From Candidatus Levyibacteriota bacterium (GTDB lineage Bacteria; Patescibacteriota; Microgenomatia; Levybacterales; UBA12049): 62,316 bases of DNA. The translations under genes were made by a program, and so were the position numbers. The number at the start of each line of letters is the position of its first letter. The first letter of the stretch is position 1. Below are positions 5,155 to 62,316 of this stretch, piece after piece. The notes under the pieces are model-generated. The model did no database searches and was not told where the DNA came from. It saw nothing but the letters and a program-made list of their open reading frames with translations. The DNA is taken from positions 1-62,316 of the forward strand of contig JAZDGF010000005.1 in NCBI GenBank assembly GCA_043807135.1. Direction: 5' to 3'.

Positions 5155-6093
5155 ATGAAAAAAAATGTAAAAATTTCTTTATTTGGAATTCCTCTTGATC
5201 TAGGAGCAGAAAATTTAGGAGTGGATACCGCCCCAAAAGCCTTAAGAGAAATAGGAATTATTAAAAAACTAGAAAAATCCGGTTTAGAAATTATTGATAA
5301 AGGTGATATTAAGGTTTTAGCAAGAAAAGGATTAAAGATAGGAAGCAGGAACTTAAAATATCTTGATGAGATAATCAGAGTTTCTGAAAAAACTGCAGAA
5401 AAAGTTGACAGTGCTATTTCTTTAGGAAATAAAGTTTTGGCAATTGGAGGAGATCATGTAATTTCTTTAGGAACAATTTCTGGAGCAGCAAACGTTCTAA
5501 AAGGAGATTTAGGAATTATATACATAGATACTCACGGAGATATTAATACTGACAAAACAACTCTTTCGGGAAACATTCATGGCATGCATATTGCGTCAGT
5601 TTTAGGTTTTGGAGAAAAAAGACTTGTTGATTTGTATAAAAAAGGAAGAAAGATAAAAAAAGAAAATATTATTCTTGTTGGCGGAAATGATCTTGATAAA
5701 GAAGAAATAAATTTAATTGAAAAAGAAAATATTAAGGCTTTTACAATTACAAATCTTCTTGCAAATGGTTTAAATCCTTTATTTGAAATGATTAATAACT
5801 TAAACAAAAAAGTTAAAAATGTTTGGGTAAGCTTAGATCTAGATGTAATTGATTATATTTATGCACCTGGTGTTGGGATTCAGAATACGGGAGGGTTAAC
5901 ATATAGAGAGATTTCAACTATTGCAAAATATATAGGTGAAAAATGTAATGTAGTAGGAATGGATTTGGCAGAGTATAATCCGTTAAAAGATATTGATAAT
6001 AAAACTGCAGAGCTTTCAATTGAGCTTTGTGCAAAAATATTTGGTTTTGATTATAGTCCATATACAAAATATATGGAGAAAAATAAATTATAA
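5155..6093 (+). CDS. Arginase/ureohydrolase family enzyme (arginase-like)
   Basis: The Mn-site motifs GGDH, DTHGDINT, SGNIHGM and SLDLDVID match the arginase/agmatinase fold. The SGNxHGM loop favours arginase. Confidence 0.8.
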   Translation: MKKNVKISLFGIPLDLGAENLGVDTAPKALREIGIIKKLEKSGLEIIDKGDIKVLARKGLKIGSRNLKYLDEIIRVSEKTAEKVDSAISLGNKVLAIGGDHVISLGTISGAANVLKGDLGIIYIDTHGDINTDKTTLSGNIHGMHIASVLGFGEKRLVDLYKKGRKIKKENIILVGGNDLDKEEINLIEKENIKAFTITNLLANGLNPLFEMINNLNKKVKNVWVSLDLDVIDYIYAPGVGIQNTGGLTYREISTIAKYIGEKCNVVGMDLAEYNPLKDIDNKTAELSIELCAKIFGFDYSPYTKYMEKNKL

Positions 6094-6156
6094 AACTTAA
6101 GATAAGCCGGTTTTGTTAGAACCGCCTGTAAATGTTCAAGAGAGGAGCTTAGCAGC

Positions 6157-6873
6157 TTAGCTAAGGTTAAAAAAAGGAGCTATATTTTCTAATTCTTCTA
6201 AAGATTTGACTAAGATATCCGGTTTTTCTAGCGCAAGTTGCTCATAACTAAATCTTCCTGTAGAAACAGCCAGCACTGGTATTTCGGCATCCCGCGCACA
6301 TTGAATATCCTTCGGTGTATCGCCAATGATGACAAAATTTCCTACAGGAAAATCTATTCCATACTTTGCATCAATTTTTTCTTTTGCTTCGTCAACTAGT
6401 TCTACTCTTTTGTCTGTTTTATCTCCAAAAGCCCCAAAATCAAATAAGTGTTTAACTCCTGCTATTTCCAGTTTTTTCCAGGCAATTTTTTCCGGATTTC
6501 CAGTTAAAATTCCATTTGGAACACCGTTTGCTCTAAAGTGCTCAGCTAACTTTCTTACACCAGGAAGGGCAGAATAATCTTTGGATTTTACTCTTTGCAT
6601 AAAATAATCATTCATTACTTTTAACATCTGGGGAAATTTTTCCATGACTTGAGGTTTTGTTAATCCATGCAGCTTTAATACTTCAATTATTAGTTGCATA
6701 TCTGTCATACCGTCGTTTACTATTTGGCTTTTTAGGGTCCCTACTTCGTAAACTTGTTTCAACGCTACATTGGTTGCTTCATCATGTAGTTTGTTTGCTG
6801 CAGAAAAAACTGTACCGTCTAAATCAAAAAGTGCAACTTTTGATTTAACGATTTTTTTAGGATTAAATTTCAT
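6157..6873 (-). CDS. HAD-superfamily hydrolase (phosphatase / beta-phosphoglucomutase-like)
   Basis: It carries FDLDGTV motif I and the later GD..D motif. The start is trimmed to ATG 6873 because a minus-strand TATAAT (6894..6889) lies inside the longer ORF. Confidence 0.8.
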   Translation of the reverse strand: MKFNPKKIVKSKVALFDLDGTVFSAANKLHDEATNVALKQVYEVGTLKSQIVNDGMTDMQLIIEVLKLHGLTKPQVMEKFPQMLKVMNDYFMQRVKSKDYSALPGVRKLAEHFRANGVPNGILTGNPEKIAWKKLEIAGVKHLFDFGAFGDKTDKRVELVDEAKEKIDAKYGIDFPVGNFVIIGDTPKDIQCARDAEIPVLAVSTGRFSYEQLALEKPDILVKSLEELENIAPFFNLS

Positions 6874-10602: not shown

Positions 10603-12012
10603 ATGGTTTTTTATAGAAAATATAGGCCTCAAACAATAGAAGAGCTTGACAGTACGGATGTAAGAGATACTTTGTATTCTGTTTTTACAGCCAAGTCAGT
10701 ACCACACGCATTCCTCTTTACAGGACCAAAGGGTTTGGGTAAGACTTCAGCTGCAAGAATAATTGCAAAAATTATAAATTGTGAGAAGAACAAAAAGGAT
10801 GTAAAAGATAAAAAGTTAATAACAAATGAAAGCGTTGAGCCTTGCAATAAATGCATACAGTGTACGTCTGTTACCAGTGGAACAAATATAGATATTTTAG
10901 AAATTGATGGTGCATCGAACAGAGGAATTGATGAAATTAGAGATCTTCGTGACAAAATAAGACTATCTCCTGCATTAGCTTCAAAAAAAGTTTACATAAT
11001 CGATGAAGTTCATATGCTTACAACAGAAGCTTTTAACGCTCTCTTAAAAACACTTGAAGAACCTCCTAGTCATGCTATCTTTATTCTTTGCACAACAGAA
11101 CCGCATAAAGTCCCTGAAACAATTTCTTCCAGATGTTTTCAGATTTCTTTTATGAGAGCAACTAATGAAGAGCTTTTAAGATCTTTTCAAAGAATTGCAA
11201 AAAATGAAAAGATTGCAATTGATAAAGATGCACTTAGTTTAATCGCGAATATGTCAGATGGGAGTTTTAGAGATGGAGTAAAAATACTTGAGCAGATAAG
11301 GTCTTTGGTAAAGGATGAAAAAATTACAAAAGAACTGGTTGAAAAAAAATACAAGAGTTCAAATATTAATCAATATGTTTTACAAATGCTTGAAAATTTA
11401 GCAAATAAAGATCTTAAAAAAAGTCTTGTTTTAATCTCAGAAGTTACCAAGCAGGGGATTGATTTAAAATATCTAACAGAATCTCTTGCTGAAAAGATTC
11501 ACAAAATTCTTCTTGTAAAAGTAGGAGTTTTAGAAAAAGAGGAAAAATTACCAATAGACTTTTCTATGGAAGAAATTAAAAAGCTTGCAATGCTTTTAGA
11601 GAAAACAGCATATGATCTTAAGTACACAGTTTTACCCCAGCTACCGCTTGAGTTATTAATTATGGAGTGGTGTGAAGAGCCTAAGGAAAAAGTTACAAAA
11701 GATTTAAACATTCCAATTGAAAATAGTAAAGCAAAACCAATCTTGCTAACTAGCAAGCAGTCAATAAATACAAATACTGATAATGATATTTGGCAAAGAT
11801 TAATTGATAAAGTAAAAACACATAATCATTCTATTGCAGGAGTTTTAAGAGGGGGAAGTTTAAAAAGCTGGGAAGACGGAAAAGTAATAATTGAAACAAA
11901 CTTTAAGTTTCATAAAGAGAAATTAGATGAAGCAAAGGAAATTCTTGAAGAAGCATGTGAAGAGATTAGTGGAAAAAAGGCAAATGTTTCGATATTATTA
12001 AAAGATAAATAA
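10603..12012 (+). CDS. dnaX: DNA polymerase III subunit gamma/tau
   Basis: YRPQTIEEL, the Walker A motif GPKGLGKTS, IIDEVHMLT and the SRC motif (SSRCF) are present. It sits in the conserved dnaX-ybaB-recR neighbourhood. Confidence 0.93.
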   Translation: MVFYRKYRPQTIEELDSTDVRDTLYSVFTAKSVPHAFLFTGPKGLGKTSAARIIAKIINCEKNKKDVKDKKLITNESVEPCNKCIQCTSVTSGTNIDILEIDGASNRGIDEIRDLRDKIRLSPALASKKVYIIDEVHMLTTEAFNALLKTLEEPPSHAIFILCTTEPHKVPETISSRCFQISFMRATNEELLRSFQRIAKNEKIAIDKDALSLIANMSDGSFRDGVKILEQIRSLVKDEKITKELVEKKYKSSNINQYVLQMLENLANKDLKKSLVLISEVTKQGIDLKYLTESLAEKIHKILLVKVGVLEKEEKLPIDFSMEEIKKLAMLLEKTAYDLKYTVLPQLPLELLIMEWCEEPKEKVTKDLNIPIENSKAKPILLTSKQSINTNTDNDIWQRLIDKVKTHNHSIAGVLRGGSLKSWEDGKVIIETNFKFHKEKLDEAKEILEEACEEISGKKANVSILLKDK

Positions 12013-20590: not shown

Positions 20591-20784
20591 AATTTATACC
20601 TTAAATTTACTCTTTTTAGTAAAAAATGTCAAGATAAATTAACTTAGGATAGTCACACTTAATAGTTTTGGAAATTATCATCTAGAATTAGCTAAATCAT
20701 AACCTTGTAGTATCACACATAGCCTCAGGACAATTTTAGAATAGGAAATTTAGCCTCAAATTATTTCGTAATATAAACATTTGT

Positions 20785-21081
20785 GTGCCATTTCCATTAT
20801 TCTCTAAGTATCTTCTAATAAACAATTTCTGCTTTAAAGTCATTAATCATCCATATCATTTAGGAGATCTTCCAAATATTATTGTAGACAAAGAGAGGAA
20901 TGGATATCTTGAAGCAATTTCTACAAGATTTACTCTTTCAGATGGTCCGTTATGTATCTTTAATGATGGTGGTTCATCAATTATGATTCATGCACACAAA
21001 GATCCTTACCACGCAGGAGATCATGGTTCCGGAGTCTCCGGAGGGCCCAGAATGGGCTGCGGAGTAATTAAAAAGATCTAG
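20785..21081 (+). pseudogene. Cu/Zn superoxide dismutase-like C-terminal fragment (truncated or degenerate)
   Basis: HLGDLPNIIV...IMIHAHKD...GGPRMGCGVI matches the C-terminal half of SodC. That half includes the H.GDLP segment, the vvHa copper ligand and the terminal CGVI disulfide Cys. The N-terminal half with the HxH copper ligands is missing. A short HFHY remnant lies in another frame at 20789..20800. Confidence 0.5.
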
Positions 21082-21093
21082 TTCTTCCAGGGC

Positions 21094-21122
21094 TTGAGAT
21101 TAGCTTAGTATTTTTGTATAAT
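21094..21122 (+). promoter_or_regulatory. Sigma70-like promoter, leaderless geometry
   Basis: TTGAGA (21094..21099), 17 nt, TGTATAAT ending at 21122, 6 nt, then ATG at 21129. Confidence 0.55.
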
Positions 21123-21128
21123 CGTTGA

Positions 21129-41203: not shown

Positions 41204-42538
41204 ATGGCAGCGATAAAAACTCTCCCGCACAATGAAGACGCAGAAGCAAGTGTATTAGGTGCCATCCTCATAGATAAAGACGCAATAGGAACAGTTTCTG
41301 AATTAATTTACTCAAGAGATTTCTATAACGATATTAACAGCATAATTTACGATGCAATGATTTCTTTATATGAACAGAGTAAGCCAATAGATATTGTTAC
41401 TCTTACTGCACAACTTAAGAAAAACAAAACACACGATAAATTAGATGCCACATACCTTGCAGAATTAGTTGAATCTGTTCCTACTGCTGCAAATATTGAG
41501 CATTACGCAAATCTTATTAAAGAAGCTTCAGTTAAGAGATCATTAATTAAAATTGGAGGACAAATAGCTGAATTAGGATTTTCCGAAGACACAGAAGCAA
41601 GTGAAATAATAGATAAAGCAGAATCTACTGTTTTTTCTATTTCTCAAGGACATTCTTTAAAAAGTTTTATTCCTGTTAAAGAAGCACTTGCAGGAAGTTT
41701 TGACAGAATTGATGAGCTTCATAAAAAAGGTCAGGGTTTAAGAGGAGTGAAAAGTGGATTTACAGATTTGGATAATCTTTTATCAGGTTTTCAGGCTTCA
41801 AATTTGATAATTCTTGCAGCAAGACCCGGTCAGGGAAAAACGGCAATGGTTGTTAATATTGCACAAAACATTGCAGTTTCTGAAAAAAAGCCAGTTGGGA
41901 TTTTTTCTTTGGAAATGAGCCAAGAAGAATTAGTTGATAGATTTTTAGTAGGACAATCTGATGTTGACGCATGGAGGCTTAAAACAGGAAAACTTTCAGA
42001 AACAGATTTTACAAAACTTTCTCAGGCAATGGGAGAACTTGCAGATGCACCTATTTTCATTGATGATACTCCAGGAATATCTATGTCAGAAATGAGAACT
42101 AAGGCAAGAAGACTTCATCTTGAACATAATGTCTCACTTTTAATTGTCGACTATCTTCAGCTTGCAGATCCCGGGAGACATTATGATAATCGTGTGCAAG
42201 AAGTGTCAATAATATCGCAGTCTCTTAAAAAGCTTGCCAGGGAATTAAAAGTACCTGTTTTAGCTGTTTCTCAGCTGTCTCGTGCAGTTGAGCATAGAGG
42301 TGAGAAAAAGCCACAGCTCGCAGATTTAAGAGAGTCAGGCGCTATTGAGCAGGATGCAGACGTTGTTATGTTTTTGTATAGACCGGATACAGAATCATTT
42401 TCTAATGTTATGCAGACAAAGCTGCTTGTTGCAAAACATAGAAATGGTCCAGTTGGGGAAATTGATTTACTTTTCCGCGGAGATAGGATAAAATTTTATA
42501 ATGTGGAAGCGAAAAGAGAAGGAGGTGATAATACTTAA
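41204..42538 (+). CDS. dnaB: Replicative DNA helicase DnaB
   Basis: It has LPHNEDAEASVLGAIL, the Walker A motif ARPGQGKT, IVDYLQL, SQLSRAVE and RESGAIEQDAD. Confidence 0.95.
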   Translation: MAAIKTLPHNEDAEASVLGAILIDKDAIGTVSELIYSRDFYNDINSIIYDAMISLYEQSKPIDIVTLTAQLKKNKTHDKLDATYLAELVESVPTAANIEHYANLIKEASVKRSLIKIGGQIAELGFSEDTEASEIIDKAESTVFSISQGHSLKSFIPVKEALAGSFDRIDELHKKGQGLRGVKSGFTDLDNLLSGFQASNLIILAARPGQGKTAMVVNIAQNIAVSEKKPVGIFSLEMSQEELVDRFLVGQSDVDAWRLKTGKLSETDFTKLSQAMGELADAPIFIDDTPGISMSEMRTKARRLHLEHNVSLLIVDYLQLADPGRHYDNRVQEVSIISQSLKKLARELKVPVLAVSQLSRAVEHRGEKKPQLADLRESGAIEQDADVVMFLYRPDTESFSNVMQTKLLVAKHRNGPVGEIDLLFRGDRIKFYNVEAKREGGDNT

Positions 42539-52179: not shown

Positions 52180-53013
52180 ATGAGAAATAGAAGAATACCA
52201 TTACTAGGATCATTTTTTTCAGGTTTTTTATCTTTTGAGAAATTTTTATTAAGCAAAAGACAAAAGCTAGTATTATCAGTAATATTTCTTTCAATAGGGT
52301 TATTTGTTTCGGAATATTTTTTGGGTAAATCTGGAATATATATTATTTTCGTTTTATCGATACTTACCAATGTTTTTCTATATCTAGTTCTTAGAAGTGA
52401 TTTGAAAAATAATTTTTTACCTCAGATTTTTATTCTTCCGTTTTTTTATAGTCTTGCTTTTGGAATGTTTTATTTCTTAGTACCTACAAGAATGCTTGCA
52501 AGAATTATTATGACGAGTCTTTATACAATTGGTTTGTATTCACTATTTTTAAGTGAAAACATCTTTACTGTTTCTTCAATGAGAACAATTGCTCTTTTGT
52601 CCGGGGCTAGAACAGTTGCTTTTACGATAACACTTGTTTCTTTTTTCTTTTTATCTAATGTTGTTTTTACACTTCACCTAAACGTTTTCATAACCCTTGC
52701 TCTTATTTTTATCTACACATTTTCTCTTGTCCTGCATTCCTTGTGGAGTTATAGCCTTGAGAAAAGTTTACGATCAGAAATGATCTGGGTATTTTTTCTT
52801 ACAGTTTGTCTTTTCGAACTTTCTATTGTTCTTTGGTTTTGGCCAAGTACACCAACCTTAATTGCACTATTCTTAACAGGTGTTTTTTATTCGTTGATTG
52901 GCTTGACTCAAGCTTGGTTTGATAAAAAACTATTTAAAGCAGTAATTTGGGAATATGTATCAGTTTCCATTATTGTATTTGCTGCATTAGTTATTTATAC
53001 TTCTTGGGTTTAA
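52180..53013 (+). CDS. Polytopic membrane protein, unknown function
   Basis: 277 aa with about 8 hydrophobic helices. No family is recognised. Confidence 0.6.
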   Translation: MRNRRIPLLGSFFSGFLSFEKFLLSKRQKLVLSVIFLSIGLFVSEYFLGKSGIYIIFVLSILTNVFLYLVLRSDLKNNFLPQIFILPFFYSLAFGMFYFLVPTRMLARIIMTSLYTIGLYSLFLSENIFTVSSMRTIALLSGARTVAFTITLVSFFFLSNVVFTLHLNVFITLALIFIYTFSLVLHSLWSYSLEKSLRSEMIWVFFLTVCLFELSIVLWFWPSTPTLIALFLTGVFYSLIGLTQAWFDKKLFKAVIWEYVSVSIIVFAALVIYTSWV

Positions 53014-53086
53014 AAATAGGGAAGTGCAGATTAGAAAAAAGCCTCTTTTTAGTAAGATAAGATAAGCAATAAATTCTGCAATTAAA

Positions 53087-53108
53087 AATAGCTTCAAAAT
53101 AGCTTCAA
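53087..53108 (+). repeat. Tandem 11-bp direct repeat AATAGCTTCAA x2
   Basis: Read directly at 53087..53097 and 53098..53108. Confidence 0.85.
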
Positions 53109-53208
53109 TTCTACACAAAAAAAACAGCATATGGATATAAATAGGGAAGAGAGTAAAGGGGAGCACAAGAGATAAAGAAGTGCGAAATATGTGATATAGT
53201 TTGATATA

Positions 53209-53230
53209 TCCTATAATAATTATTATAGGA
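53209..53230. repeat. Perfect 22-bp palindrome TCCTATAATAATTATTATAGGA (core of a dif-like 28-mer, 53206..53233)
   Basis: Read directly. As a 28-mer it reads ATATCCTATAA-TAATTA-TTATAGGACTT. Confidence 0.85.
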
Positions 53231-53879
53231 CTTTTTTAGATATAAAAAACCTATGTGGATAAGTGTTTTCACGTTTATTTAAAGGGAGTTTTCACAGGGT
53301 TGATTACTGTAGTTCTACCTATCGGGAATAGAAGATAGATACGAAGTAAGTTAATCGAAAAAAATACGAATGCTCCTTTCCAAAGATAGCAGAGACAAAA
53401 CGTTTTATTTTTAAAGCTAAAATAAAGAGTTTAGATTGATTTAATAGGCTAAACCAGAGTTGATCCAGAGATGACAAGAAAAGAAGGTGCTATCGTAGCT
53501 TGCACATAATAAAAATTGATTGTAGGTCAATAGAAGAGGACATGGTTCTTTTATTTAAGTATCCAGTTCTCTTGTGATATCATCCTCCGTTCTCATAGAA
53601 GAAAAAATCCAGATTTCTAGCAATAGGAGGTCTTGAGTGGTCATGTCGCACAATAATACTTTTACGACGCCACTCAGGCTCGGTACTGGGAGAAGTGCTT
53701 ATTTAAGTAAGGTTTAAAAATAAAATTTTAAATCTTTTCTTATATACGTATTCCTCTGTCTTTTATTTCCTGTTGTTTTATCCTCCTAGATTTTTTTACC
53801 ACCTCCCCTACTATAGGTTTTCTAGTTTTTATTATTTTTGAGGCTATTCAAGGCTAAATTTTACACAATTATTGGTCTT

Positions 53880-53908
53880 CTCCGAGGCTGAAGCGGAGGT
53901 TTTTCTTT
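53880..53908 (+). terminator. Hairpin plus T-run oriented for a + strand transcript
   Basis: CTCCG aggctgaag CGGAG followed by GTTTTTCTTT. The T-run exists only on the + strand, so it does not serve the convergent pilin-like gene. Confidence 0.4.
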
Positions 53909-53918
53909 CTATTCTATG

Positions 53919-54599
53919 TTATTGTTTTAGTTTTTTTTTACCTGCTTCATTTTTACAGTTATTTTCTTTAAAGCTACATTTGTTTTGACAAGTTGGATCA
54001 TCTCTAAATATCATTGGGCATTCACTTCTTTCGGGATTTGCATATTCAATGCATTTTCTACTTGGTGTACATGCATAAAGACTGTATTGTGGGCATCCAT
54101 CATTAATTGGCATATTTGTACTAGATATTCCAAAATTATAATTACAATTCATGCCACAGCCCTTCCTACATCCAATAAAATCGATGCTCTTGTCGTTTGT
54201 GTTTTGAATGTCAACTAAAACCTTGTACCAATTAGGACATTCGATTCCTTTTTTCTTACCGTCTTGGTTACCATGAGGTTCTTTGCTTATCAACTCGTAT
54301 CTATACGGTATATTATCTTCAAGACAAGGAAACTTCTTTATATAGATAACATTTCCGATCTTAAGCTCTTTTCCACATTCAGGAAGAGCCTGAGGATAAC
54401 AGCTGGCATCGTCGTAGTATTGATCAAATGAGTTTCGTATTTCAATCAAATCACTTTTAATTTTTACATCTTTTGCCTTTTCTATCTGCGAACTTATTCC
54501 TATAAAACTTGCTGCACTAAGAATTGCAAGAATTGATATAGCGAAAAGCATCTCGATTAAAAGAGAACCTTTGTGGCTACTTGTTATTTTTTTTAGCAT
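53919..54599 (-). CDS. Type IV pilin / pseudopilin-like protein with 14-Cys globular domain
   Basis: A prepilin-type N-terminus is present: MLKKITSSHKG / SLLIEMLFAISILAILSAA, with Glu at +5. The C-terminal ~170 aa contain 14 Cys. Confidence 0.8.
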   Translation of the reverse strand: MLKKITSSHKGSLLIEMLFAISILAILSAASFIGISSQIEKAKDVKIKSDLIEIRNSFDQYYDDASCYPQALPECGKELKIGNVIYIKKFPCLEDNIPYRYELISKEPHGNQDGKKKGIECPNWYKVLVDIQNTNDKSIDFIGCRKGCGMNCNYNFGISSTNMPINDGCPQYSLYACTPSRKCIEYANPERSECPMIFRDDPTCQNKCSFKENNCKNEAGKKKLKQ

Positions 54600-54642
54600 T
54601 ACGATTATATTCTCACAGATTTAAGAGTATGGTCAAGTTTGT

Positions 54643-54671
54643 TTGACATTGTTTCAACTTTAGTTTAAATT
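54643..54671 (+). promoter_or_regulatory. Sigma70-like promoter, leaderless geometry
   Basis: TTGACA (54643..54648), 17 nt, TAAATT (54666..54671), 6 nt, then GTG at 54678. A minus-strand TTGACC (54636..54631) lies back-to-back with it. Confidence 0.5.
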
Positions 54672-54677
54672 TGTCTT

Positions 54678-55331
54678 GTGAAAAGCATAATTGTTTTAAT
54701 TCTATTTCTGATCTATCCAAGCTTAGGATTACAGGTAAATCAGCTTTTTGATAATGCTAAGACACCTGAAAGAAAGATCCTAGCTTATATCCCTAGTCCA
54801 ACTCCGTTACCAACTCCTATAAAGCCTACAATAATAATCAAGAAAAGCTTGGAAAACGCAAAAATTATTGCTCAAAAAGATGAATCAGAGCCTTGGGGCG
54901 TTTCTAAACAGATTTCAGAACACACATGGACTATGAAGGTTGGAGAAGATCAAGAAATGGCAATCCCTCAAGATATATTAGAAGCGTTAAATAGCTATAG
55001 AAGTATACATGGCAAAGGCATTCTTAGTTGGAATAATAGTCTTGCAAGCTTTGCTCAAAGCAGAGCTGAATTTTTTAATAAGGAAGGAAAATTAGATGAA
55101 CATGCAGGTTTTAACAGCTATTTTGGAGACCCTGAAAATATAAAAAAAACAGGATTTCTTAAGGTTGGAGAAAACTCTTCTGTTGGATATAAGATGGACG
55201 GAGTGCATTTAATTGAATGGGTATTTGCAGGAGATGCTCCTCATAATAATAATCAACTTGATTCTTCTTGGACAGCTGTTGGAATTGGTGTAAGTGGAGC
55301 ATCAGTAGATATTGTTTTTGGAGGAAGATAA
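54678..55331 (+). CDS. Secreted CAP/SCP (YkwD-like) domain protein
   Basis: It has a signal peptide, a Pro-rich linker, and then LNSYRSIHGKGILSWNNSLASFAQSRAE...HAGF...GENSS, which is typical of the CAP domain. Confidence 0.75.
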   Translation: MKSIIVLILFLIYPSLGLQVNQLFDNAKTPERKILAYIPSPTPLPTPIKPTIIIKKSLENAKIIAQKDESEPWGVSKQISEHTWTMKVGEDQEMAIPQDILEALNSYRSIHGKGILSWNNSLASFAQSRAEFFNKEGKLDEHAGFNSYFGDPENIKKTGFLKVGENSSVGYKMDGVHLIEWVFAGDAPHNNNQLDSSWTAVGIGVSGASVDIVFGGR

Positions 55332-55365
55332 TATAGGATAGAAATTTATTTTGTGAAAATATTTA

Positions 55366-56061
55366 CTATGGGTTTATTGCTAATGGAGTTACTTTTCCCA
55401 TTTGCTCTTGCATAATTATCTTATTATCTCCAACTTGAGTAATACGCTTTCCATTGGGTGAATTTTCTATTCTTGAAAATACACCATCTTTTTCTTGTCT
55501 AACAATTCCATTTTTTCTTGTTGATTCTGAATACGCAACAAAGCCTGTTTCTACCTCTTTTTCTCCTTCATATTTTATTGCCATGGCAATCCAATCCTGA
55601 TCAGGCCTTCCTCTTGTGTCCCTTTTTAATATTGGCCATGTAATTTCAATAAATTTTGTTCCTTCTGGGATTTCTACTCCGTTTATCTGTTCTGCTTTGG
55701 TTAGTTTATCCATACTATTTGAATAATCTTGTTCCTCGATTACTCCAGCAGTGTTTCGAACTCTGGCTTTTTCAAGATTTATTACTAAAGAACCCGTAAA
55801 CATTCTTTCAGCTGGTGTTTCAGAGAAAATTTGTATTGCTTCGGTTCTTGTTTGAGCAAGAATTGACGGGTCTGCTGCTATTCGACTGCTGTCTTCATTA
55901 GAGCTTCCATGAGCAGCAGCTACTCCTAATGCAGCAGCGACTGCTCCTACTGCTACTACTTGTCTTAATTTATAATTTGGCTTACGACGACCCACTTGTC
56001 TTCTCTCATCATATCCAATTTTAGACACGGATGCTTCAGATGGAGTAATTGGTTCAGACAT
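55366..56061 (-). CDS. Membrane-anchored hypothetical protein
   Basis: 231 aa. It has a basic N-terminus, one Ala/Val-rich TM helix (VVAVGAVAAALGVAAA) and a beta-rich ectodomain. No family is recognised. Confidence 0.6.
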   Translation of the reverse strand: MSEPITPSEASVSKIGYDERRQVGRRKPNYKLRQVVAVGAVAAALGVAAAHGSSNEDSSRIAADPSILAQTRTEAIQIFSETPAERMFTGSLVINLEKARVRNTAGVIEEQDYSNSMDKLTKAEQINGVEIPEGTKFIEITWPILKRDTRGRPDQDWIAMAIKYEGEKEVETGFVAYSESTRKNGIVRQEKDGVFSRIENSPNGKRITQVGDNKIIMQEQMGKVTPLAINP

Positions 56062-56101: not shown

Positions 56102-56130
56102 TTGACAATTCTTTCTAATCTCTCTACTAT
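56102..56130 (+). promoter_or_regulatory. Sigma70-like promoter of the recombinase gene
   Basis: TTGACA (56102..56107), 17 nt, TACTAT (56125..56130). The TTG ORF start at 56102 is the -35 box. A minus-strand TTGACA (56097..56092) lies back-to-back with it. Confidence 0.5.
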
Positions 56131-56152
56131 AACTCTAGCGTCGCAAAATATT

Positions 56153-57094
56153 ATGAAAGGAAGCTTGCCTGAACTAATTGATCAATTTTTAGAATATCTT
56201 GAAATTGAAAAAAACTGTTCCAAATTAACAATCCGTGATTACAGACACTATCTTGAAGTGTTTGAAAAATGGTTTACCACTACCCTACCAGATAAGAAAA
56301 TAGAGGATTTAAACTTACAAATTATTAGAAAATACCGCGTATTTCTTGCAAACAGAGAAAATGCTAAAGGAATGACTTTAAAAAGAGTTACTCAAAATTA
56401 TTATGTTATTGCTTTAAGGTCTTTTTTAAGGTTTCTAATTAAAAACGATCATAATACTTTGGAGCCATCAAAAATTGATTTGCCTAAAACAGAAAGCAGA
56501 TCTTTAAAGTTTTTAGAAAAAGATCAAGTTGATCGTTTGGTTACAGCAACAGATACTTCAAAAGAAAAAGGACTAAGAGATCGGGCAATGTTAGAACTGC
56601 TCTTCTCTACCGGTCTTCGTGTCTCAGAACTGGTTAGCCTAAATAAGGATAGGATAAATTTAGAAAGAAAAGAATTTGGAATTATCGGAAAAGGTGGAAA
56701 ATCAAGAATAGTTTTTGTTTCAAAGCGTGCTGCGGAATGGATAAAAAGATATTTAAATAAAAGAGAAGATAGTTTTAAACCTTTATTTATTAGATACTCA
56801 GGAAAGATTATTGAAGATAATGGTGGTGAGAAAATGAGACTTACCGCACGAAGTGTTGAACGGATGGTAAAAAAATATGTAAGAGCGGCAAGAATTCCTG
56901 TAGATGCGACAGTTCATACCTTAAGACACTCTTTTGCAACAGACCTTCTTACTAATGGCGCAGATATTCGATCGGTTCAAGAAATGCTCGGACATAAAAA
57001 TATTGCTACGACTCAAATTTATACTCATATTACAAATAAACAGTTAAGAGAAGTTCATGACAGTTTTCATAGTGGAAATAAAGGCAACCGTTAA
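56153..57094 (+). CDS. XerC/XerD-family tyrosine recombinase
   Basis: It has an N-terminal SAM-like core-binding domain (IDQFLEYLEIEKNCSKLTIRDYRHYL) and the catalytic residues in RDRAMLELLFSTGLRVSEL, HTLRHSFATDLL, LGH and IYTH. Confidence 0.9.
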   Translation: MKGSLPELIDQFLEYLEIEKNCSKLTIRDYRHYLEVFEKWFTTTLPDKKIEDLNLQIIRKYRVFLANRENAKGMTLKRVTQNYYVIALRSFLRFLIKNDHNTLEPSKIDLPKTESRSLKFLEKDQVDRLVTATDTSKEKGLRDRAMLELLFSTGLRVSELVSLNKDRINLERKEFGIIGKGGKSRIVFVSKRAAEWIKRYLNKREDSFKPLFIRYSGKIIEDNGGEKMRLTARSVERMVKKYVRAARIPVDATVHTLRHSFATDLLTNGADIRSVQEMLGHKNIATTQIYTHITNKQLREVHDSFHSGNKGNR

Positions 57095-57837
57095 TAAATT
57101 TCGTAAGAAAGTGAAACAGTTACGGAAACCGTATTCTCTCCAGGAGTAATATTTGTAGGTTCTTTTCTATCTGTTTCTTCAATTGCCCCTCCTCTTCCAA
57201 CAAGTGGTATAGGGTATTGGGATAAACCTTGTTCTGAGATATCAACAATTTTTCCAAGTCTTATTCCTGCTGCTTTGGCAAGACCTTCTGCTTTTTGTTT
57301 GGCTTTTTTAACTGCTTCTTCTCTGGCCTCTTTTTCAAGTTTTTCTTTTAATTCATCACTAAACGAAAATTGTGCTCCTCCGGAAATATTTGCTCCATTT
57401 GCAGTTGCAGTGTCAATAACTTTATTTATTTTTTCAATTGGCTTTACTTTAACTTCAAGATTTTGTGTTACATTGTATCCGGTTATTCTTTGATTTCCGT
57501 TAAAGTCGTAATTTGGGTAAACGGAATAATTAGTTGTTTTAATATCTTTTTCCTTCATTCCTAATTTTTTAAGTTCGTTAATAATTGAAGAGACTTTTTT
57601 ATTTACTTTATCTTGAGTATCTACTACAGAAGATGAGGTTTGCGTAACTCCAATATTTACAACAGCAATATCAGGTGCAGCAGTTGCTTTTCCTGTTCCT
57701 TCCGTGGCAAAAAAACTGTTTTTTGTTGTTTGGATGCTATTTACGGAAAACGGGATTGGTCCAACGATTCTTGTGTAGAGAATAAGACCCAGGAAGATAA
57801 AAATAATGGTAAAGAGCGGAATTTTTAAGTCCTTCAT
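57091..57837 (-). CDS. SIMPL/DUF541 (BP26/Omp28-like) periplasmic protein
   Basis: A signal/anchor precedes a central helical segment (KEKLEKEAREEAVKKAKQKAEGLAKAAG) flanked by beta regions, as in SIMPL. Confidence 0.7.
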   Translation of the reverse strand: MKDLKIPLFTIIFIFLGLILYTRIVGPIPFSVNSIQTTKNSFFATEGTGKATAAPDIAVVNIGVTQTSSSVVDTQDKVNKKVSSIINELKKLGMKEKDIKTTNYSVYPNYDFNGNQRITGYNVTQNLEVKVKPIEKINKVIDTATANGANISGGAQFSFSDELKEKLEKEAREEAVKKAKQKAEGLAKAAGIRLGKIVDISEQGLSQYPIPLVGRGGAIEETDRKEPTNITPGENTVSVTVSLSYEIY

Positions 57838-57862
57838 CTATTAAATCTTAATTTATTTATGC

Positions 57863-58756
57863 TTAACTGTCAATCCGTGCAGAATTAATTAAATTTCTTA
57901 AAAGCATTACAACATTTACTGGTCCTACTCCGCCAGGAACAGGAGTATAATAGCTTGCAATTTTTGCAACTTCTTCTTGATTATAATCTGGGGTAAGTTT
58001 TCCGTTCTTTTCTTTTCGCATGCCGATTCCAATAATAATTGCTCCTTTTTTTACTTCATTTGATTTTATAACCGGTTTTCCAACAGTGGAAATCAAAATG
58101 TCAGCAGATTTAATAATTTCAGAAGGAGCTTTAGTTTTACTGTCAACAATGGTTATTGCAATTTTCATTTTCTTAAAAAGATTTATGACAGGTCTTCCTC
58201 CGGTATCTCCTTTCCCGACAACCACAATTTTTTTAAGTTTTAACCATGCATTAATAGTTTTGCAAGTAAGTCCTTCTTCTTGGTTCTTAACTGCTTGTAT
58301 GTCTGCAAATATTATATTTAGAATTTCCAAAACTGCTTTTGCAATTGGTTCGTTGAATTTTGAGTTTGGTAAAAAACCGTCAACATCTTTTTTGATGCTA
58401 ACCATTTTTCTTGTTTCCATTTCATCTATTTGAAGAGGAAGCGGTCTTTGAATAATAATTCCGTGAATATTGGAATCATTATTTAATTTTTCAACAAATG
58501 ATTTTAACTTGCTTAAGGAGATATCATTATTGAAATCGTGAATTGAAATTTTTATTCCAATTAATTCTCCTTTTAATTTCTTTTGATTAACATAAGCTTT
58601 AGATGGATGATTTTCTCCAATTAGAATAATTGCAAGATGAGGTAGAATATTTTTCTTTTTTAAGCAATCTACTTTTTTTTTAAGTTCCTGAAGGATTTTA
58701 TTTGCAATTATGTTTCCGTCAATCTTCATTTTCGATGCAAGTTGCAGATGCGACAT
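57863..58756 (-). CDS. folD: Bifunctional methylene-THF dehydrogenase / methenyl-THF cyclohydrolase
   Basis: [10 protein letters not shown] and [16 protein letters not shown] are present. The start may instead be the internal ATG at 58729. Either start overlaps the gyrA 3' end. Confidence 0.88.
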
Positions 58757-61223
58757 TATCGTTTTCTTTTGAAAAGCGCATTAAGATTACTCCTTGGGTA
58801 TCTCTTGAAAGTTTAGGAATAGAATTTGCATTAAGTTTTACGATTTGTCCCTTTTCCGATGTTATTATTACCTCCGTGCAGTTTATAGGAATTACTTGCG
58901 CAAAGGAAACTTTTCCTGTTTTTTTGGTTACCTTTGCAACTTTTACTCCTTGTCCTCCTCTTCCCTGTCCGCGAAAAAGTTTGGATGAAGTTTTCTTACC
59001 AAGTCCATTTTTCATTATTGTTAAAAGATTAATATCTTCTTTTGCTCCAATTACATCCATTCCAATTACAATATCATCTTCGTTTAATTTTATTCCTCTA
59101 ACTCCCATAGTTGCTCTTCCCATTGATCTTACTGTGCTTCCTGAAAATCTAATCGCTTTCCCGTTTTTTGTTGCAAGAATTATATCGTCGTCTCCATCTG
59201 TTAGTTTGCTCCAGGCAAGCTCATCACCCTTATTTAATTTTATTGCTAAAATTCCGGTTTTTCTAATATTTGTAAATTCAGAAAGCTTGCTTTTTTTAAC
59301 AGTTCCTTTTCTAGTTGTTAAAAATACATAAATTCCTTTTTCATCTTTTCTGTATGTGATAAAGGATTCAACTTTTTCATCAGAATCAATATTTAAGAGA
59401 TTTACAATAGCGGTGCCCTTGCTTGTTCTTGCTGATTCGCTTATCTCAAATGCTCTTAGTTGATAAACCTTCCCTTTATTTGTAAAGAACAATAAATTAT
59501 CATGGGTTTGGGCATAACGGATATGGAAAATACTATCCTCGTCTTTTGTCGTCATTCCTTTAATGCCTTTTCCGCCTCTATGTTGGGTTTTAAAACTTGC
59601 TATGCTTTGTCTTTTAACATAGCCTGTGGTGGTAAGAGTTATGACTGTTGATTCATTTGGAATAAGATCTTCTTCTGAGAATTCTCCAACTTTGCTTTTA
59701 TAAACTTTAGTTCTTCTTGCATCTCCATATTTTTTCTTCAAGGAAACAAGTTCATTTTTAATAATAACTAGAATTTTTGCAGGGTGTGCTAGAAGATCTT
59801 CAAGATACACAATTGTTTCTTTGACCATTTGATATTCATCTTCAATCTTTTGTCTCTCTAAAGCAGCCAGTCTTCTTAATTGCATATCAAGAATTGCAGT
59901 TGCTTGGATTTCTGATAACTTAAATTTGGCAACTAAGTTTTCCTTAGCATCATCCTGAGTTTTTGAGGCTCTGATAGTTTTAATTACTGCATCAATGTTA
60001 TCAACAGCTATTTTTAGTCCTTCTAAGATATGAAGCCTTGCTTTTGCCTGCTTTAATTCAAATTCAGATCTTCTTTTTACAACTAAATAACGATGTTTTA
60101 AAAACTCTTCTAAAATTGTTTTAAGATTTAATGTTCTTGGTGTTCCGTCAACAAGAGCTACAATATTTGCAGAGAAAGTTGTTTGAAGAGCGGTATATTT
60201 AAATAAATTATTTAAAATTTTTTTTGGCGAACTATCTCTTTTAAGTTCAACTACAATTCTTGTTCCTTGACGATCTGATTCGTCACGAAGATCTGAAATT
60301 CCTTCAATTTTTTTTTCCTTAGCAAGGCCTGCAATTCTTGCAACTAAAAGCGCTTTATTTACCTGATATGGAAGTTCTGTGATAATAATTGCTGATTTAC
60401 CTTGTCCTATTTCTTCAATGCTGGCTTTTCCGCGAATCAAGATTCTGCCCCTACCTGTCATGTAAACATTTTTTATTTCTTCAAAATCATAAATTGCTCC
60501 AGCTGTTGGGAAATCCGGGCCTTTAATAAACTGAAGAAGTTCGTCAATTCCTACTTCTGAATTTATTTCTGGAACATTTGATTCTGTAGTTTGATTAAAT
60601 TTGGTTTTGTCAATCATGAAAACAATTGCATCAATAATTTCGGATAAATTATGTGGAGGTATTTTTGTTGCCATTCCAACAGCAATTCCTTCAGATCCCA
60701 TTAAAAGAAGATTTGGCAAAAGACTTGGTAAAAAAACCGGTTCTTTTAGAGTCGCGTCAAAATTATCTAAATAATCAACAGTTTCCTTATCAAGATCTAA
60801 GAGCATTTCATTTGAAATTGCTGCCATTCTTGCTTCCGTATAGCGCATATGCGCAGGAGGATCTCCGTCCATTGATCCAAAGTTTCCTTGTCCTTCTATT
60901 AAGGGATAGCGCATGGAGAAATCCTGAGCCATTCTTACCAGGGAATCATAAATTGGGATATCACCGTGAGGATGGTATTTTCCCATAACTTCTCCGACGA
61001 TTTTTGCAGACTTTGAAAACTTTGCCGAGTGAGTAAGATTTATTTCATGCATTGCAAAGAGAATTCTTCTGTGAACCGGTTTTAATCCGTCTCTTACATC
61101 TGGAAGTGCACGGGAAACTATAACAGACATTGCGTAATCAAGATACGCTTTTTTCATCTCCGTTGTTATTTCAGTCTGTTCAAGTTTTCCTATTTTATTT
61201 TTTTCTTGTTTTTCTTCGCTCAT
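58719..61223 (-). CDS. gyrA: DNA gyrase subunit A
   Basis: [25 protein letters not shown] is present, the active-site Tyr sits in HMRYTEARM, and the C-terminal beta-pinwheel repeats follow. Confidence 0.96.
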
Positions 61224-61302
61224 AATAAAATAAAGTTAATTTAGTAAAAAAACAAAAAACATAACCTACCTATATTACCTAAAGAATAAGTAATTAAAGG
61301 TA

Positions 61303-61815
61303 TTACTTAATTGCTTTTCTTACTGCTTCTAGTGCTTCTTTTTTTCCTTTCCAGTTTTTAATTTTAACCCATTTTCCGGGTTCAAGAGTTTTATAATTTT
61401 CAAAAAAATGCTTGATTTTGTTTTTTACAGCTTCTGGAACATCTGAAATATCATTGTAATCTCCAAAAAGCGGATCAACCTTAGTGCTTGGCACTGCAAC
61501 TACTTTAGCGTCATTTCCTGCTTCATCTTCCATTTCCAAGAAACCAATTATTTTAGATGGAATTACTGTTCCAGGGGCAACGCCTTGATCTCCTAAAACA
61601 ATTACATCAAGCGGATCTCCGTCATCTGCAAGTGTGTTTGCTACAAAACCGTAGTTAAAAGGAAAGTTCATTGCAGTATGTAAGAATCTATCAACAAAAA
61701 CTAGACCGCTGTTTTTATCAAGTTCGTATTTAATATTGCTATTTTTTGGAATTTCAATAAAAACATTTACTTCTTCAGGTGGATTTTTACCAACTGAGAG
61801 TTTTTTTATATCCAT
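61303..61815 (-). CDS. ppa: Inorganic pyrophosphatase (family I)
   Basis: 170 aa with YELDK, NYGFV and DGDPLDV motifs. Confidence 0.92.
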   Translation of the reverse strand: MDIKKLSVGKNPPEEVNVFIEIPKNSNIKYELDKNSGLVFVDRFLHTAMNFPFNYGFVANTLADDGDPLDVIVLGDQGVAPGTVIPSKIIGFLEMEDEAGNDAKVVAVPSTKVDPLFGDYNDISDVPEAVKNKIKHFFENYKTLEPGKWVKIKNWKGKKEALEAVRKAIK

Positions 61816-61887
61816 TATTTTTTCACCTCCATTTTTTTATAGTCGCCTTTTTTATTAGGTAAGGCATTTATTTTTTCCATAATAATA

Positions 61888-62316
61888 TTAGAAATCCAAA
61901 GTTGCAGTTTTAGCATTGCTTTGAATAAAGTGTTTTCTTGGTGGAACTTCTTCTCCCATAAGCATTGTAAATACCGCATCCGCTTCTTCTGCGTCAGCAA
62001 TATTTACTTGTTTTAAAATTCTATTCTGCGGATTCATAGTTGTTTCCCAGAGCTGATCAGGATTCATTTCTCCAAGACCTTTATATCTTTGAATGCCAAT
62101 TCTTGCAGAATTTCCAAAAGCCTTAATTACTTCATCTTTTTCAATGTCTGAGTATGCATACTTTGCATTTTTACCTGATGTTAGCTTATATAACGGAGGT
62201 TGAGCGATATATAAATATCCTTGTTTTATAATCTCTGGTAAGTGTCTATAAAAAAAAGTAAGAATTAAAGTTTCAATATGTTGCCCGTCAACATCAGCAT
62301 CAGTCATAATAATAAT
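61888..62316 (-). CDS. gyrB: DNA gyrase subunit B, C-terminal part (continues beyond the right edge)
   Basis: IIIMTDADVDGQHI (Toprim) is followed by QPPLYK and RYKGLGEM. The frame is open to base 62316, so the M at 62307 is internal. Confidence 0.93.
   Translation of the reverse strand: MIIMTDADVDGQHIETLILTFFYRHLPEIIKQGYLYIAQPPLYKLTSGKNAKYAYSDIEKDEVIKAFGNSARIGIQRYKGLGEMNPDQLWETTMNPQNRILKQVNIADAEEADAVFTMLMGEEVPPRKHFIQSNAKTATLDF

Follow-up and report, generated by a model that had tools for sequence, protein, structure and literature searches.

The stretch of DNA analysed here, called the window in the following, comprises 62,316 nucleotides of contig JAZDGF010000005.1 from a Candidatus Levyibacteriota bacterium. 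Between positions 53014 and 53918 it contains an island of 905 bases in which no open reading frame (ORF) of at least 60 amino acids (aa) lies wholly inside on any strand. The longest ORF that touches the island encodes 59 aa on the minus strand (52987-53166) and extends past the island edge, which bears out the description of this segment as ORF-free in an earlier note on the same DNA. At 0.316, its GC content is the same as the genome average. Convergent genes flank it, i.e. the gene for a membrane protein of the DUF5656 family (52180-53013, plus strand) and a pilin-like gene (53919-54599, minus strand), and a gene for an Xer-family recombinase follows further downstream. The features central to the argument are the following:

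52180..53013, plus strand: DUF5656 (PF18900) polytopic membrane-protein gene, found right before the island in 72 of 72 contigs that extend far enough to show it
53014..53918, no strand assigned: whole non-coding island, with nhmmer matches in relatives, no consistent ORF and collinear blocks
53643..53670, no strand assigned: core site (block I), candidate recombinase target, an 11-6-11 imperfect dyad of 28 bp with the sequence ATGTCGCACAA TAATAC TTTTACGACGC
56102..57094, plus strand: gene for an Xer-family tyrosine recombinase, presumed partner of the core (Pfam Phage_integrase and SAM_1; NCBIfam XerA_Arch)

The protein encoded by the flanking DUF5656 gene assigns the window to Candidatus Levybacteria (Patescibacteria/CPR). 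For comparison, 80 species-representative loci were gathered through alignment of DUF5656, and 85 loci were used in the nhmmer test. With the 905-base island as query, nhmmer finds a match 3' of the DUF5656 gene, at the same position and on the same strand, in about 75 of the 85 Levybacteria loci; the loci without a match are either truncated by contig ends or still carry the motifs B, F and I (see below). The inspection of homologous spacers that had been suggested as a check therefore finds the island conserved at the same place. In four loci (L017, L018, L032 and L037; about 5820-6440) an extra ORF of about 200 aa is located between the DUF5656 gene and the island, so that the adjacency of the two is not absolute. 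The gene-free gap in the relatives mostly measures 0.7-1.3 kb and contains no consistent ORF. Hereby, the orientation of the island and the order of its blocks are constant across loci, as seen in the motif map and in an alignment of 57 sequences, and the right-hand neighbour gene differs between loci in both identity and strand. The closest relatives, whose DUF5656 is 85% identical, show a gene-free gap of 873 bp with the same neighbours, which aligns in patches at the nucleotide level. An exact-pattern scan for the core matched at least 120 metagenome contigs, and no match was obtained when a viral contig collection was scanned with the core pattern, for which reason a phage or plasmid origin was rejected. 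Many public records that contain the Levybacteria locus (L009, L011, L015 and others) are titled 'uncultured Gammaproteobacteria bacterium', a label that is evidently wrong. The literature on Xer/dif in Patescibacteria, on non-coding RNA of Levybacteria and on DUF5656 was searched, and nothing was found on such a locus. Most likely, the island is a module that several proteins bind at the DNA level and that has been conserved throughout Candidatus Levybacteria.

The core is non-coding, near-invariant among relatives and unique in the 62-kb window (0 copies expected by chance), and each fetched contig carries one copy. A search of the window for a second core-like site with up to 3 mismatches found none. 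Among 173 distinct sequences, both arms (the right one reverse-complemented) fit the pattern AYGTCGYA(C/A)AA, in which positions 3-6, 8, 10 and 11 are invariant and the degenerate positions 2 and 7, both Y, coincide in the two arms. The asymmetric 6-bp centre reads TAATAC in 167 of the 173. Such symmetrical degeneracy is as expected if two copies of one protein read the arms, while an invariant centre is required of a crossover region. The core shows the architecture of dif/Xer sites, which consists of two imperfect inverted arms of about 11 bp and a centre of 6-8 bp. Positions 7 and 22 vary independently of each other (60 C-A mismatches among the 173 sequences), and the inner part of the core is therefore not an RNA stem. 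In a comparison of the core and block K (see below) with the 3' end of 16S rRNA, an 8-mer match at chance level was obtained.

The recombinase encoded in the window is 330 aa long and reaches a score of 221.9 with NCBIfam XerA_Arch (cut-off 220), whereas it stays below the respective cut-offs of XerC and XerD. According to tblastn it is the single Xer in the 62-kb window. Of the 32 contigs with more than 5 kb of flanking sequence, 28 carry xer downstream of the island, in the same orientation. In 95 distinct loci the distance from the core to xer ranges from 169 to 5426 nt, with a median of 1.4 kb, and in 12 of these, the most divergent lineages included, xer is the very next gene. The location of the site beside the gene is described as a hallmark of single-recombinase Xer systems (PMC5357621), and a site adjacent to the recombinase gene is what we find here. 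Compared to the neighbouring YebC, which is 50-76% identical among relatives, Xer is 67-93% identical. The genetic linkage suggests that the core is the target of the downstream Xer. The genes located between the island and xer differ by species (53919-56061 in the window, 7711-10811 in L001). In the window they encode the pilin-like protein, which has a GspG-type N-terminus, a secreted protein with a CAP/SCP domain and an unknown protein of 231 aa. The segment 53919-56061 is thus a variable island of surface and secreted proteins beside the candidate recombination site.

Conserved blocks are found on both sides of the core. According to the block map, drawn from the 57-sequence alignment and the motif map, their collinear order is reverse G, A, B, C, D, E1, E2, F, G, H, I, J, K and two forward G, followed by a promoter in many species. 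Apart from the core, the window contains the following:

53087..53108, minus strand: two tandem reverse copies of the G motif (TTGARGCTA), from the motif map; these are the tandem 11-mer of the earlier note
53141..53153, plus strand: block A, purine-rich TAGGGAAGAGAG (block consensus GGGAAGAGGAG), conserved in 91% of 142 distinct sequences
53192..53209, plus strand: block B, two TGATATAG units at a spacing of 10 bp that include a TTGATA -35-like hexamer, from the motif map
53209..53230, no strand assigned: 22-bp palindrome, an inverted pair of block C (ATTATAGGA), from the motif map
53254..53262, minus strand: block D, perfect DnaA box TGTGGATAA (TTATCCACA on the minus strand); no other perfect box exists in the 62 kb
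53265..53296, plus strand: blocks E1 (GTTTTCACG) and E2 (GTTTTCACA), DnaA-box-like 9-mers that fit TTWTNCACA with one or two mismatches
53356..53373, plus strand: block F, CGAAAAAAATACGAATGC (block consensus CGAAAAAAATACGAA), near-invariant in the 57-sequence alignment
53411..53454, no strand assigned: central copy of the G motif (TTGAGGCTAAA) followed by the inverted repeat of block H, TTTAGATTG N6 CAATCTAAA, from the alignment
53688..53697, plus strand: block J, GGGAGAAGTG, after which a T-run often follows in relatives
53802..53817, plus strand: block K, CCTCCCCTACTATAGG (block consensus CTCCCCTACTATAGG), at a fixed distance from the core
53838..53858, plus strand: two forward copies of the G motif, TTGAGGCTA and CAAGGCTAAA, from the motif map
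53870..53908, plus strand: presumably decayed promoter position, by comparison with relatives; the window has a hairpin CTCCG..CGGAG and a T-run here

All motifs listed in the earlier note are present, including AAATAGGGAAG at 53014 and 53139, three copies of GAAGTGC, the tandem 11-mer (53087-53108), the 22-bp palindrome (53209-53230), the hairpin at 53632-53678, the AGGAGG and CCTCC elements and the pyrimidine tract. That these repeats are notable in themselves holds in part, since within the window alone short repeats do not occur above chance and their significance comes from the conservation in relatives. Promoter-like sites in the window number 5, compared to 5.8 expected. Likewise, the hairpin and T-run at 53880-53908 exist, but the reading as a terminator does not stand: the loop measures 9 nt, a scan called 0 terminators, and the structure is not conserved in the closest relative. 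At the equivalent of 53870-53908, relatives carry a rightward TTGACA-N16-18-TATAAT promoter, which is near-consensus in 10 loci. Within this segment a promoter-spacer stretch of about 14 bp, CCCCGAGGCTGGA, is found exactly reverse-complemented in other lineages (comparison with L017 and L024), which looks like a small inversion at a quasi-palindrome.

The blocks vary among relatives in number, orientation and spacing. Block B consists of 3-4 TGATATAG units in some of them, and at B/C the pair TTGATA-N16-TATTAT scores 10/12 in about 12 of the 57 loci. Most relatives possess the right-hand copy of block C only and some the inverted copy only; G and C motifs are found in either orientation at equivalent places. 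The consensus repeat of block H is partly degenerate in the window, and its stem pairs never change on both sides. From the core (GTCG, 53645) to block K the start-to-start distance is 161-165 bp in 56 of 64 loci, although the pyrimidine-rich spacer in between is unconserved in sequence and does not fold. Other spacers change in steps of about 10.5 bp, so that C and E1 are separated by 20, 33, 43, 54 or 65 bp, C and D by 16, 26, 36 or 47 bp and E1 and E2 by 22-23 or 32 bp; the corresponding helical-phase statistics count related loci as independent. A second long spacer of the window (20591-21128, 538 bp) is located between divergent genes and contains the reverse G motifs ATAGCCTCAGG (about 20720) and TTTAGCCTCAAA (20750), roughly 90-130 bp upstream of the promoter (TTGACA-N17-TAAATT) of a minus-strand cupin gene. 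Due to these copies beside an unrelated promoter, the G motif appears to be an element of general use upstream of promoters in this genome.

The perfect DnaA box of block D is present in 43 of the 57 elements, always on the same strand, and the density of perfect boxes is 0.85 per kb inside the element and 0.007 per kb outside, which corresponds to an enrichment of about 120-fold. The TTTTCAC repeats of E1 and E2 start at 53266 and 53289, i.e. 23 bp apart, and are oriented opposite to D, with a modal D-to-E1 spacing of 17 bp. In the core of the E. coli DARS elements, box I is likewise opposite to boxes II and III (PMC5742627), and the three boxes found here, one opposite to the other two at fixed spacing, resemble this arrangement at the sequence level only. 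In one subclade (L048, L056, L067, L073, L074, L077 and L078) the perfect box is shifted by about 270 bp to the right and lies just past block H (element positions 445-490), and a reverse G motif occupies the usual place of the DnaA box (element position about 185). The box trio and the phased repeats may belong to a DnaA-controlled promoter, to an element of the DARS/datA type or to an accessory architecture.

We propose that the island contains a single-recombinase Xer site in extended accessory and regulatory DNA and that it forms one module with the downstream recombinase, a reading to which we assign a probability of about 0.5. It is built on directly observed conservation, synteny, dyad architecture and helical-phase spacing, on the lack of a coding or RNA-structure signal and on the lack of a replication-strand switch; Xer binding and cutting at the core, DnaA binding at the boxes and the purpose of the recombination we infer. 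Hereby, Xer, encoded 169-5426 nt downstream, would act on the 28-bp core, so that site and recombinase would constitute one unit. On the left flank, the DnaA-box trio, the phased TGATATAG repeats and the TTGATA/TATTAT pair would serve as accessory or regulatory DNA, to which the right flank would add the fixed-length spacer, block K and the G motifs, joined in many species by a strong promoter that points outward. We assume an ancestral arrangement in which the promoter at the 3' end of the island drives xer. In many species, including that of the window, one to several variable genes would have been inserted between island and xer, and in the window the promoter position would have decayed into the hairpin that was taken for a terminator. 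The recombination could serve a terminus- and FtsK-independent dimer resolution in the style of cer/psi or of archaeal XerA; alternatively, the site could be an attachment site for incoming variable genes between site and xer. An integron-like or cassette model and an inversion switch were considered as well and rejected, as there is no second core-like site in the window and all loci show one orientation. Of the three options raised in the earlier note, a chromosome-maintenance locus is thus favoured, albeit not as an origin or terminus, while a large non-coding RNA is unsupported and a decayed gene is rejected (see below).

The proposed module resembles several known systems in part. As in XerS/difSL and XerH/difH, a single Xer gene is genetically linked to a short site whose inverted arms are imperfect and whose centre is conserved, and the site shows high conservation within the clade. 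The inner arm ends are similarly rich in A and T, reading ...CACAA / TTTTA... here and ...GAAAA / TTTTC... there (PMC5357621). In contrast, the XerS and XerH sites are terminus-located and FtsK-dependent, whereas no strand-bias switch is seen at our locus. The central region measures 6 bp here and 11 bp in difSL, and the window protein is XerC/D/A-like with 330 aa, compared to 350-360 aa for XerS and XerH. Moreover, variable genes often lie between site and gene in our loci, and the conserved flanks of about 750 bp are without counterpart in those systems. For archaeal dif sites, an 11-6-11 architecture, uniqueness in the genome, a non-coding location, high conservation and conserved flanks have been used as criteria (PMC2958812). 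The core shows the architecture, the non-coding location, the high conservation and the conserved flanks, and within the window and the fetched contigs it is present as a single copy. Near-symmetrical arms are a further likeness to archaeal XerA/dif, and the XerA cut-off is the only one that the window protein passes. Archaeal XerA is independent of FtsK, and its site is not located 180 degrees from the origin (PMC2958812, PMC5357621). Archaeal dif sites differ in that they lie in termination regions and usually not beside xerA, and the host in our case is bacterial. In the cer/psi systems, an Xer core is combined with accessory DNA that binds architectural proteins, and resolution is independent of terminus and FtsK. 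The present arrangement is similar insofar as a candidate Xer core is accompanied by conserved flanks with helical-phase spacing that would bind architectural proteins. Unlike cer/psi it is chromosomal, its flanks, present left and right of the core, are about four times as long, and the accessory proteins ArgR, PepA and ArcA and their boxes were not identified.

Several points weigh against the Xer module. The conserved flanks amount to about 750 bp in total, and the accessory DNA of cer/psi, with about 180 bp, is far shorter. The lack of a second core copy in the window speaks against both inversion and the capture of cassettes in this genome. In the core, the outermost pair (positions 2 and 27) avoids C-A among the 173 sequences, with 4 cases observed and about 13 expected, as would also be expected of a short RNA or a cruciform stem. 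Only 12 of the 28 positions of the core agree with the E. coli dif sequence. A dimeric transcription factor could bind the 28-bp dyad instead. Finally, a classical dif lies at a switch of the GC skew, whereas the GC skew at third codon positions (GC3 skew) shows no change of sign here (+0.12 to +0.155 on both sides). If the site resolves dimers, it would do so away from the terminus, and with such a location a classical FtsK-guided dif function is unlikely.

If a dimeric transcription factor were to bind the dyad, the locus could be a transcriptional control hub without any recombination, in which the core and block H act as operators, B/C as a DnaA-responsive promoter and the G motifs as upstream-activator or UP-like elements. 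We consider this possible yet unlikely. Near-consensus promoters at the 3' end in 10 loci, TTGATA-N16-TATTAT at B/C in about 12 and the G motifs upstream of the cupin-gene promoter are in line with such a hub; the helical phasing is equally typical of promoter architecture, and DnaA is a known transcription factor. However, the island always lies downstream of DUF5656 while its right-hand gene is variable, and both neighbours in the window are convergent, so that neither needs a promoter in the island. The invariant asymmetric 6-bp centre fits a crossover region and not an operator spacer, and the tight linkage to xer is explained by the hub only if the island is the promoter region of xer.

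Another possibility, which we regard as rather improbable, is a plus-strand non-coding RNA of about 0.7 kb that acts via single-stranded motifs and is made either as a 3' extension of the DUF5656 transcript or from the B/C promoter. By analogy, such an RNA might partner the DUF5656 membrane protein as OLE RNA does OapA. Compared to the large RNAs OLE, GOLLD, ROOL and HEARO, the island is similar in size and in its conservation within a lineage, and OLE also adjoins a membrane-protein gene; unlike them, it matches no Rfam family and shows neither covariation nor a strand-specific folding signal. The fixed orientation relative to DUF5656 in every locus would suit a transcript, as would the promoter-like pair at B/C and long invariant runs such as the 16-nt CACAATAATACTTTTA, which is closed by GTCG/CGAC. 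Moreover, plus-strand folding of the window element is more favourable by 29 kcal/mol, and in 43 of 57 end-to-end tests the better duplex was that of the plus strand. Against this, the z-score of the folding of the whole window element is strand-symmetric (-2.01 on the plus and -2.00 on the minus strand), as expected of palindromic DNA, and variable segments show z-scores of -0.6, -0.4 and 0.0 relative to shuffles, alike on both strands. The Rfam check had been proposed earlier and was run: Rfam 15 at gathering thresholds and at E<=10 matched no family on the island, Rfam at gathering thresholds returned nothing besides tRNA-Leu for the window and 13 related loci, and ARAGORN detected no tmRNA.

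Covariation, the second check proposed for the RNA, was likewise not seen. Hereby, RNAalifold, applied to 39 sequences from H to J and to 173 sequences around the core, yields only the H stem and the GTCG/CGAC stem, with 0 compensatory pairs; the alignments are sequence-based and not structure-aware, so that MAFFT may misalign variable helices and weak local hairpins could escape. In an alignment-free test, 16 anchored segments from 45 diverse loci were compared for their duplex energy with partners from their own and from other loci. None of the 120 segment pairs passes the Bonferroni threshold, and the best one is a weak local own-locus complementarity near the 3' end (S15-S16, p=0.001), which counts in favour of an RNA. 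A helix between A and K that seemed compensatory in a few loci was rejected as compositional (own partner -16.4, other partners -16.1 kcal/mol). An all-against-all scan of column pairs for helices was swamped by the noise of purine and pyrimidine tracts. Pairing of the reverse G copies at the 5' end with the forward copies at the 3' end would close the element; such a helix measures 13-25 bp only in L009, L011, L013, L067 and L081 and is not general, because most loci have a single 5' arm or none. Motif flips and spacer changes by helical turns, in addition, have no meaning in RNA. The large non-coding RNA put forward in the earlier note thus finds no support from Rfam, compensation, complementarity or folding, and the island is probably not a large structured RNA.

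The DnaA boxes could also mark a control locus of the DnaA cycle comparable to E. coli DARS or datA, in which the remainder of the island would offer binding sites to architectural proteins and the link to Xer would be incidental synteny; we judge this improbable. Like DARS1, DARS2 and datA, the island is a non-coding cluster of DnaA boxes at mid-replichore with long flanks that are subject to spacing constraints (PMC5742627). A perfect box opposite two weaker ones, a long regulatory flank comparable to the 455-bp DARS2 (PMC5742627), the phased spacing, the mid-replichore position and the strong enrichment of boxes all agree with such a role. Nevertheless, conservation in the island is highest not at the boxes but at the 28-bp dyad, 380 bp from them; the perfect box is absent in 14 of the 57 elements and moved by about 270 bp in one subclade, and only a relaxed box consensus accommodates E1 and E2. 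In contrast to DARS/datA, there is only one perfect box, the top-conserved element is a non-DnaA dyad, no sequence homology exists, and no IHF or Fis sites were recognised.

With regard to replication, the cumulative GC skew was computed as the earlier note had proposed. The raw curve indeed peaks at about 53-57 kb, yet the GC3 skew, which tells replication bias apart from coding bias, shows no replication-strand switch. Far upstream of the island, the GC3 skew, calculated for the plus strand, amounts to +0.14 in genes on the plus strand and +0.12 in those on the minus strand, compared to +0.155 and +0.149 beyond xer (169 genes from 98 loci); the window alone behaves alike. Since the GC3 skew is unchanged at the locus, the raw peak reflects the gene orientation, which switches past xer from 84% plus upstream to 77% minus beyond. 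No signature of DnaA, DnaB or FtsK was found in 1.6 Mb of related loci. The same-sign GC3 skew could be accommodated if origin and terminus coincided, with a unidirectional origin at 53190-53300 and the dif-like core 380 bp away at the point where the fork returns. This would join the DnaA boxes and the Xer site and would suit a universal locus that occurs once per contig, but we consider it very improbable. In a milder version, Levybacteria would resolve chromosome dimers at mid-replichore, at an FtsK-independent site with accessory DNA in which DnaA possibly plays an architectural role. Still less credit can be given to a chromosomal replication origin or a classical dif terminus of a bidirectional chromosome, despite the DnaA box, the repeats, the dif-like dyad, the raw skew peak and the switch in gene orientation, as the sign of the GC3 skew is constant on both sides and in both gene orientations. 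An origin is further opposed by the lack of an AT-rich unwinding element, with a GC content equal to the genome average, and in place of the hallmarks of oriC we find one perfect and two relaxed boxes, no skew change and no dnaA motif in the loci.

A decayed gene, finally, can be dismissed with near certainty: in spite of the gene-like length and of an AGGAGG in front of an ORF of 24-26 codons (53637-53717), the period-3 power of the column entropy is 0.5 times the median compared to 465 times in the DUF5656 coding sequence, no consistently placed ORF exists across more than 140 distinct sequences, which speaks for a lasting ORF-free state, and the substitutions between window and L001 fall mostly on first and second codon positions. 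The small ORF behind AGGAGG (MVMSHNNTFTT...) was rejected as not conserved; its start codon is ACG in many relatives, and one clade carries an in-frame TAG.

Patescibacteria account for a large uncultured share of bacterial diversity and have small genomes with very little non-coding DNA, and a non-coding module of 0.8 kb that all examined Levybacteria genomes retain therefore likely does something essential. If the dyad is indeed the target of Xer, the phylum gains a candidate site for chromosome-dimer resolution or integration, and the range of Xer systems would be widened by a site that lies away from the terminus and possesses unusually long accessory DNA with DnaA boxes. In that case, the variable genes for pilin-like and secreted proteins between site and recombinase would mark a hotspot for surface-protein diversity. 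The locus also advises caution, in that ORF-free conserved islands with hairpins need covariation and strand tests before they are labelled as RNA.

Some further observations concern the remainder of the window. Past xer (56102-62316), SIMPL, folD, gyrA, ppa and the next ORF are all located on the minus strand. The same holds for 77% of the 169 genes beyond xer in the related loci, which the GC3 skew places on the lagging strand; the conserved block including gyrA is therefore transcribed head-on to replication. The replication genes dnaX (10603-12012), dnaB (41204-42538) and gyrA (58719-61223) are present in the window, and dnaA and dnaN are not. At the left end, the segment 607-1235 contains no ORF of at least 50 aa, and Rfam at E<=1 finds nothing there. 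The ORFs 33-407 and 127-606 overlap, the latter being without a Pfam match, and the first kilobase of the window has a GC content of 43%, compared to about 32% elsewhere.

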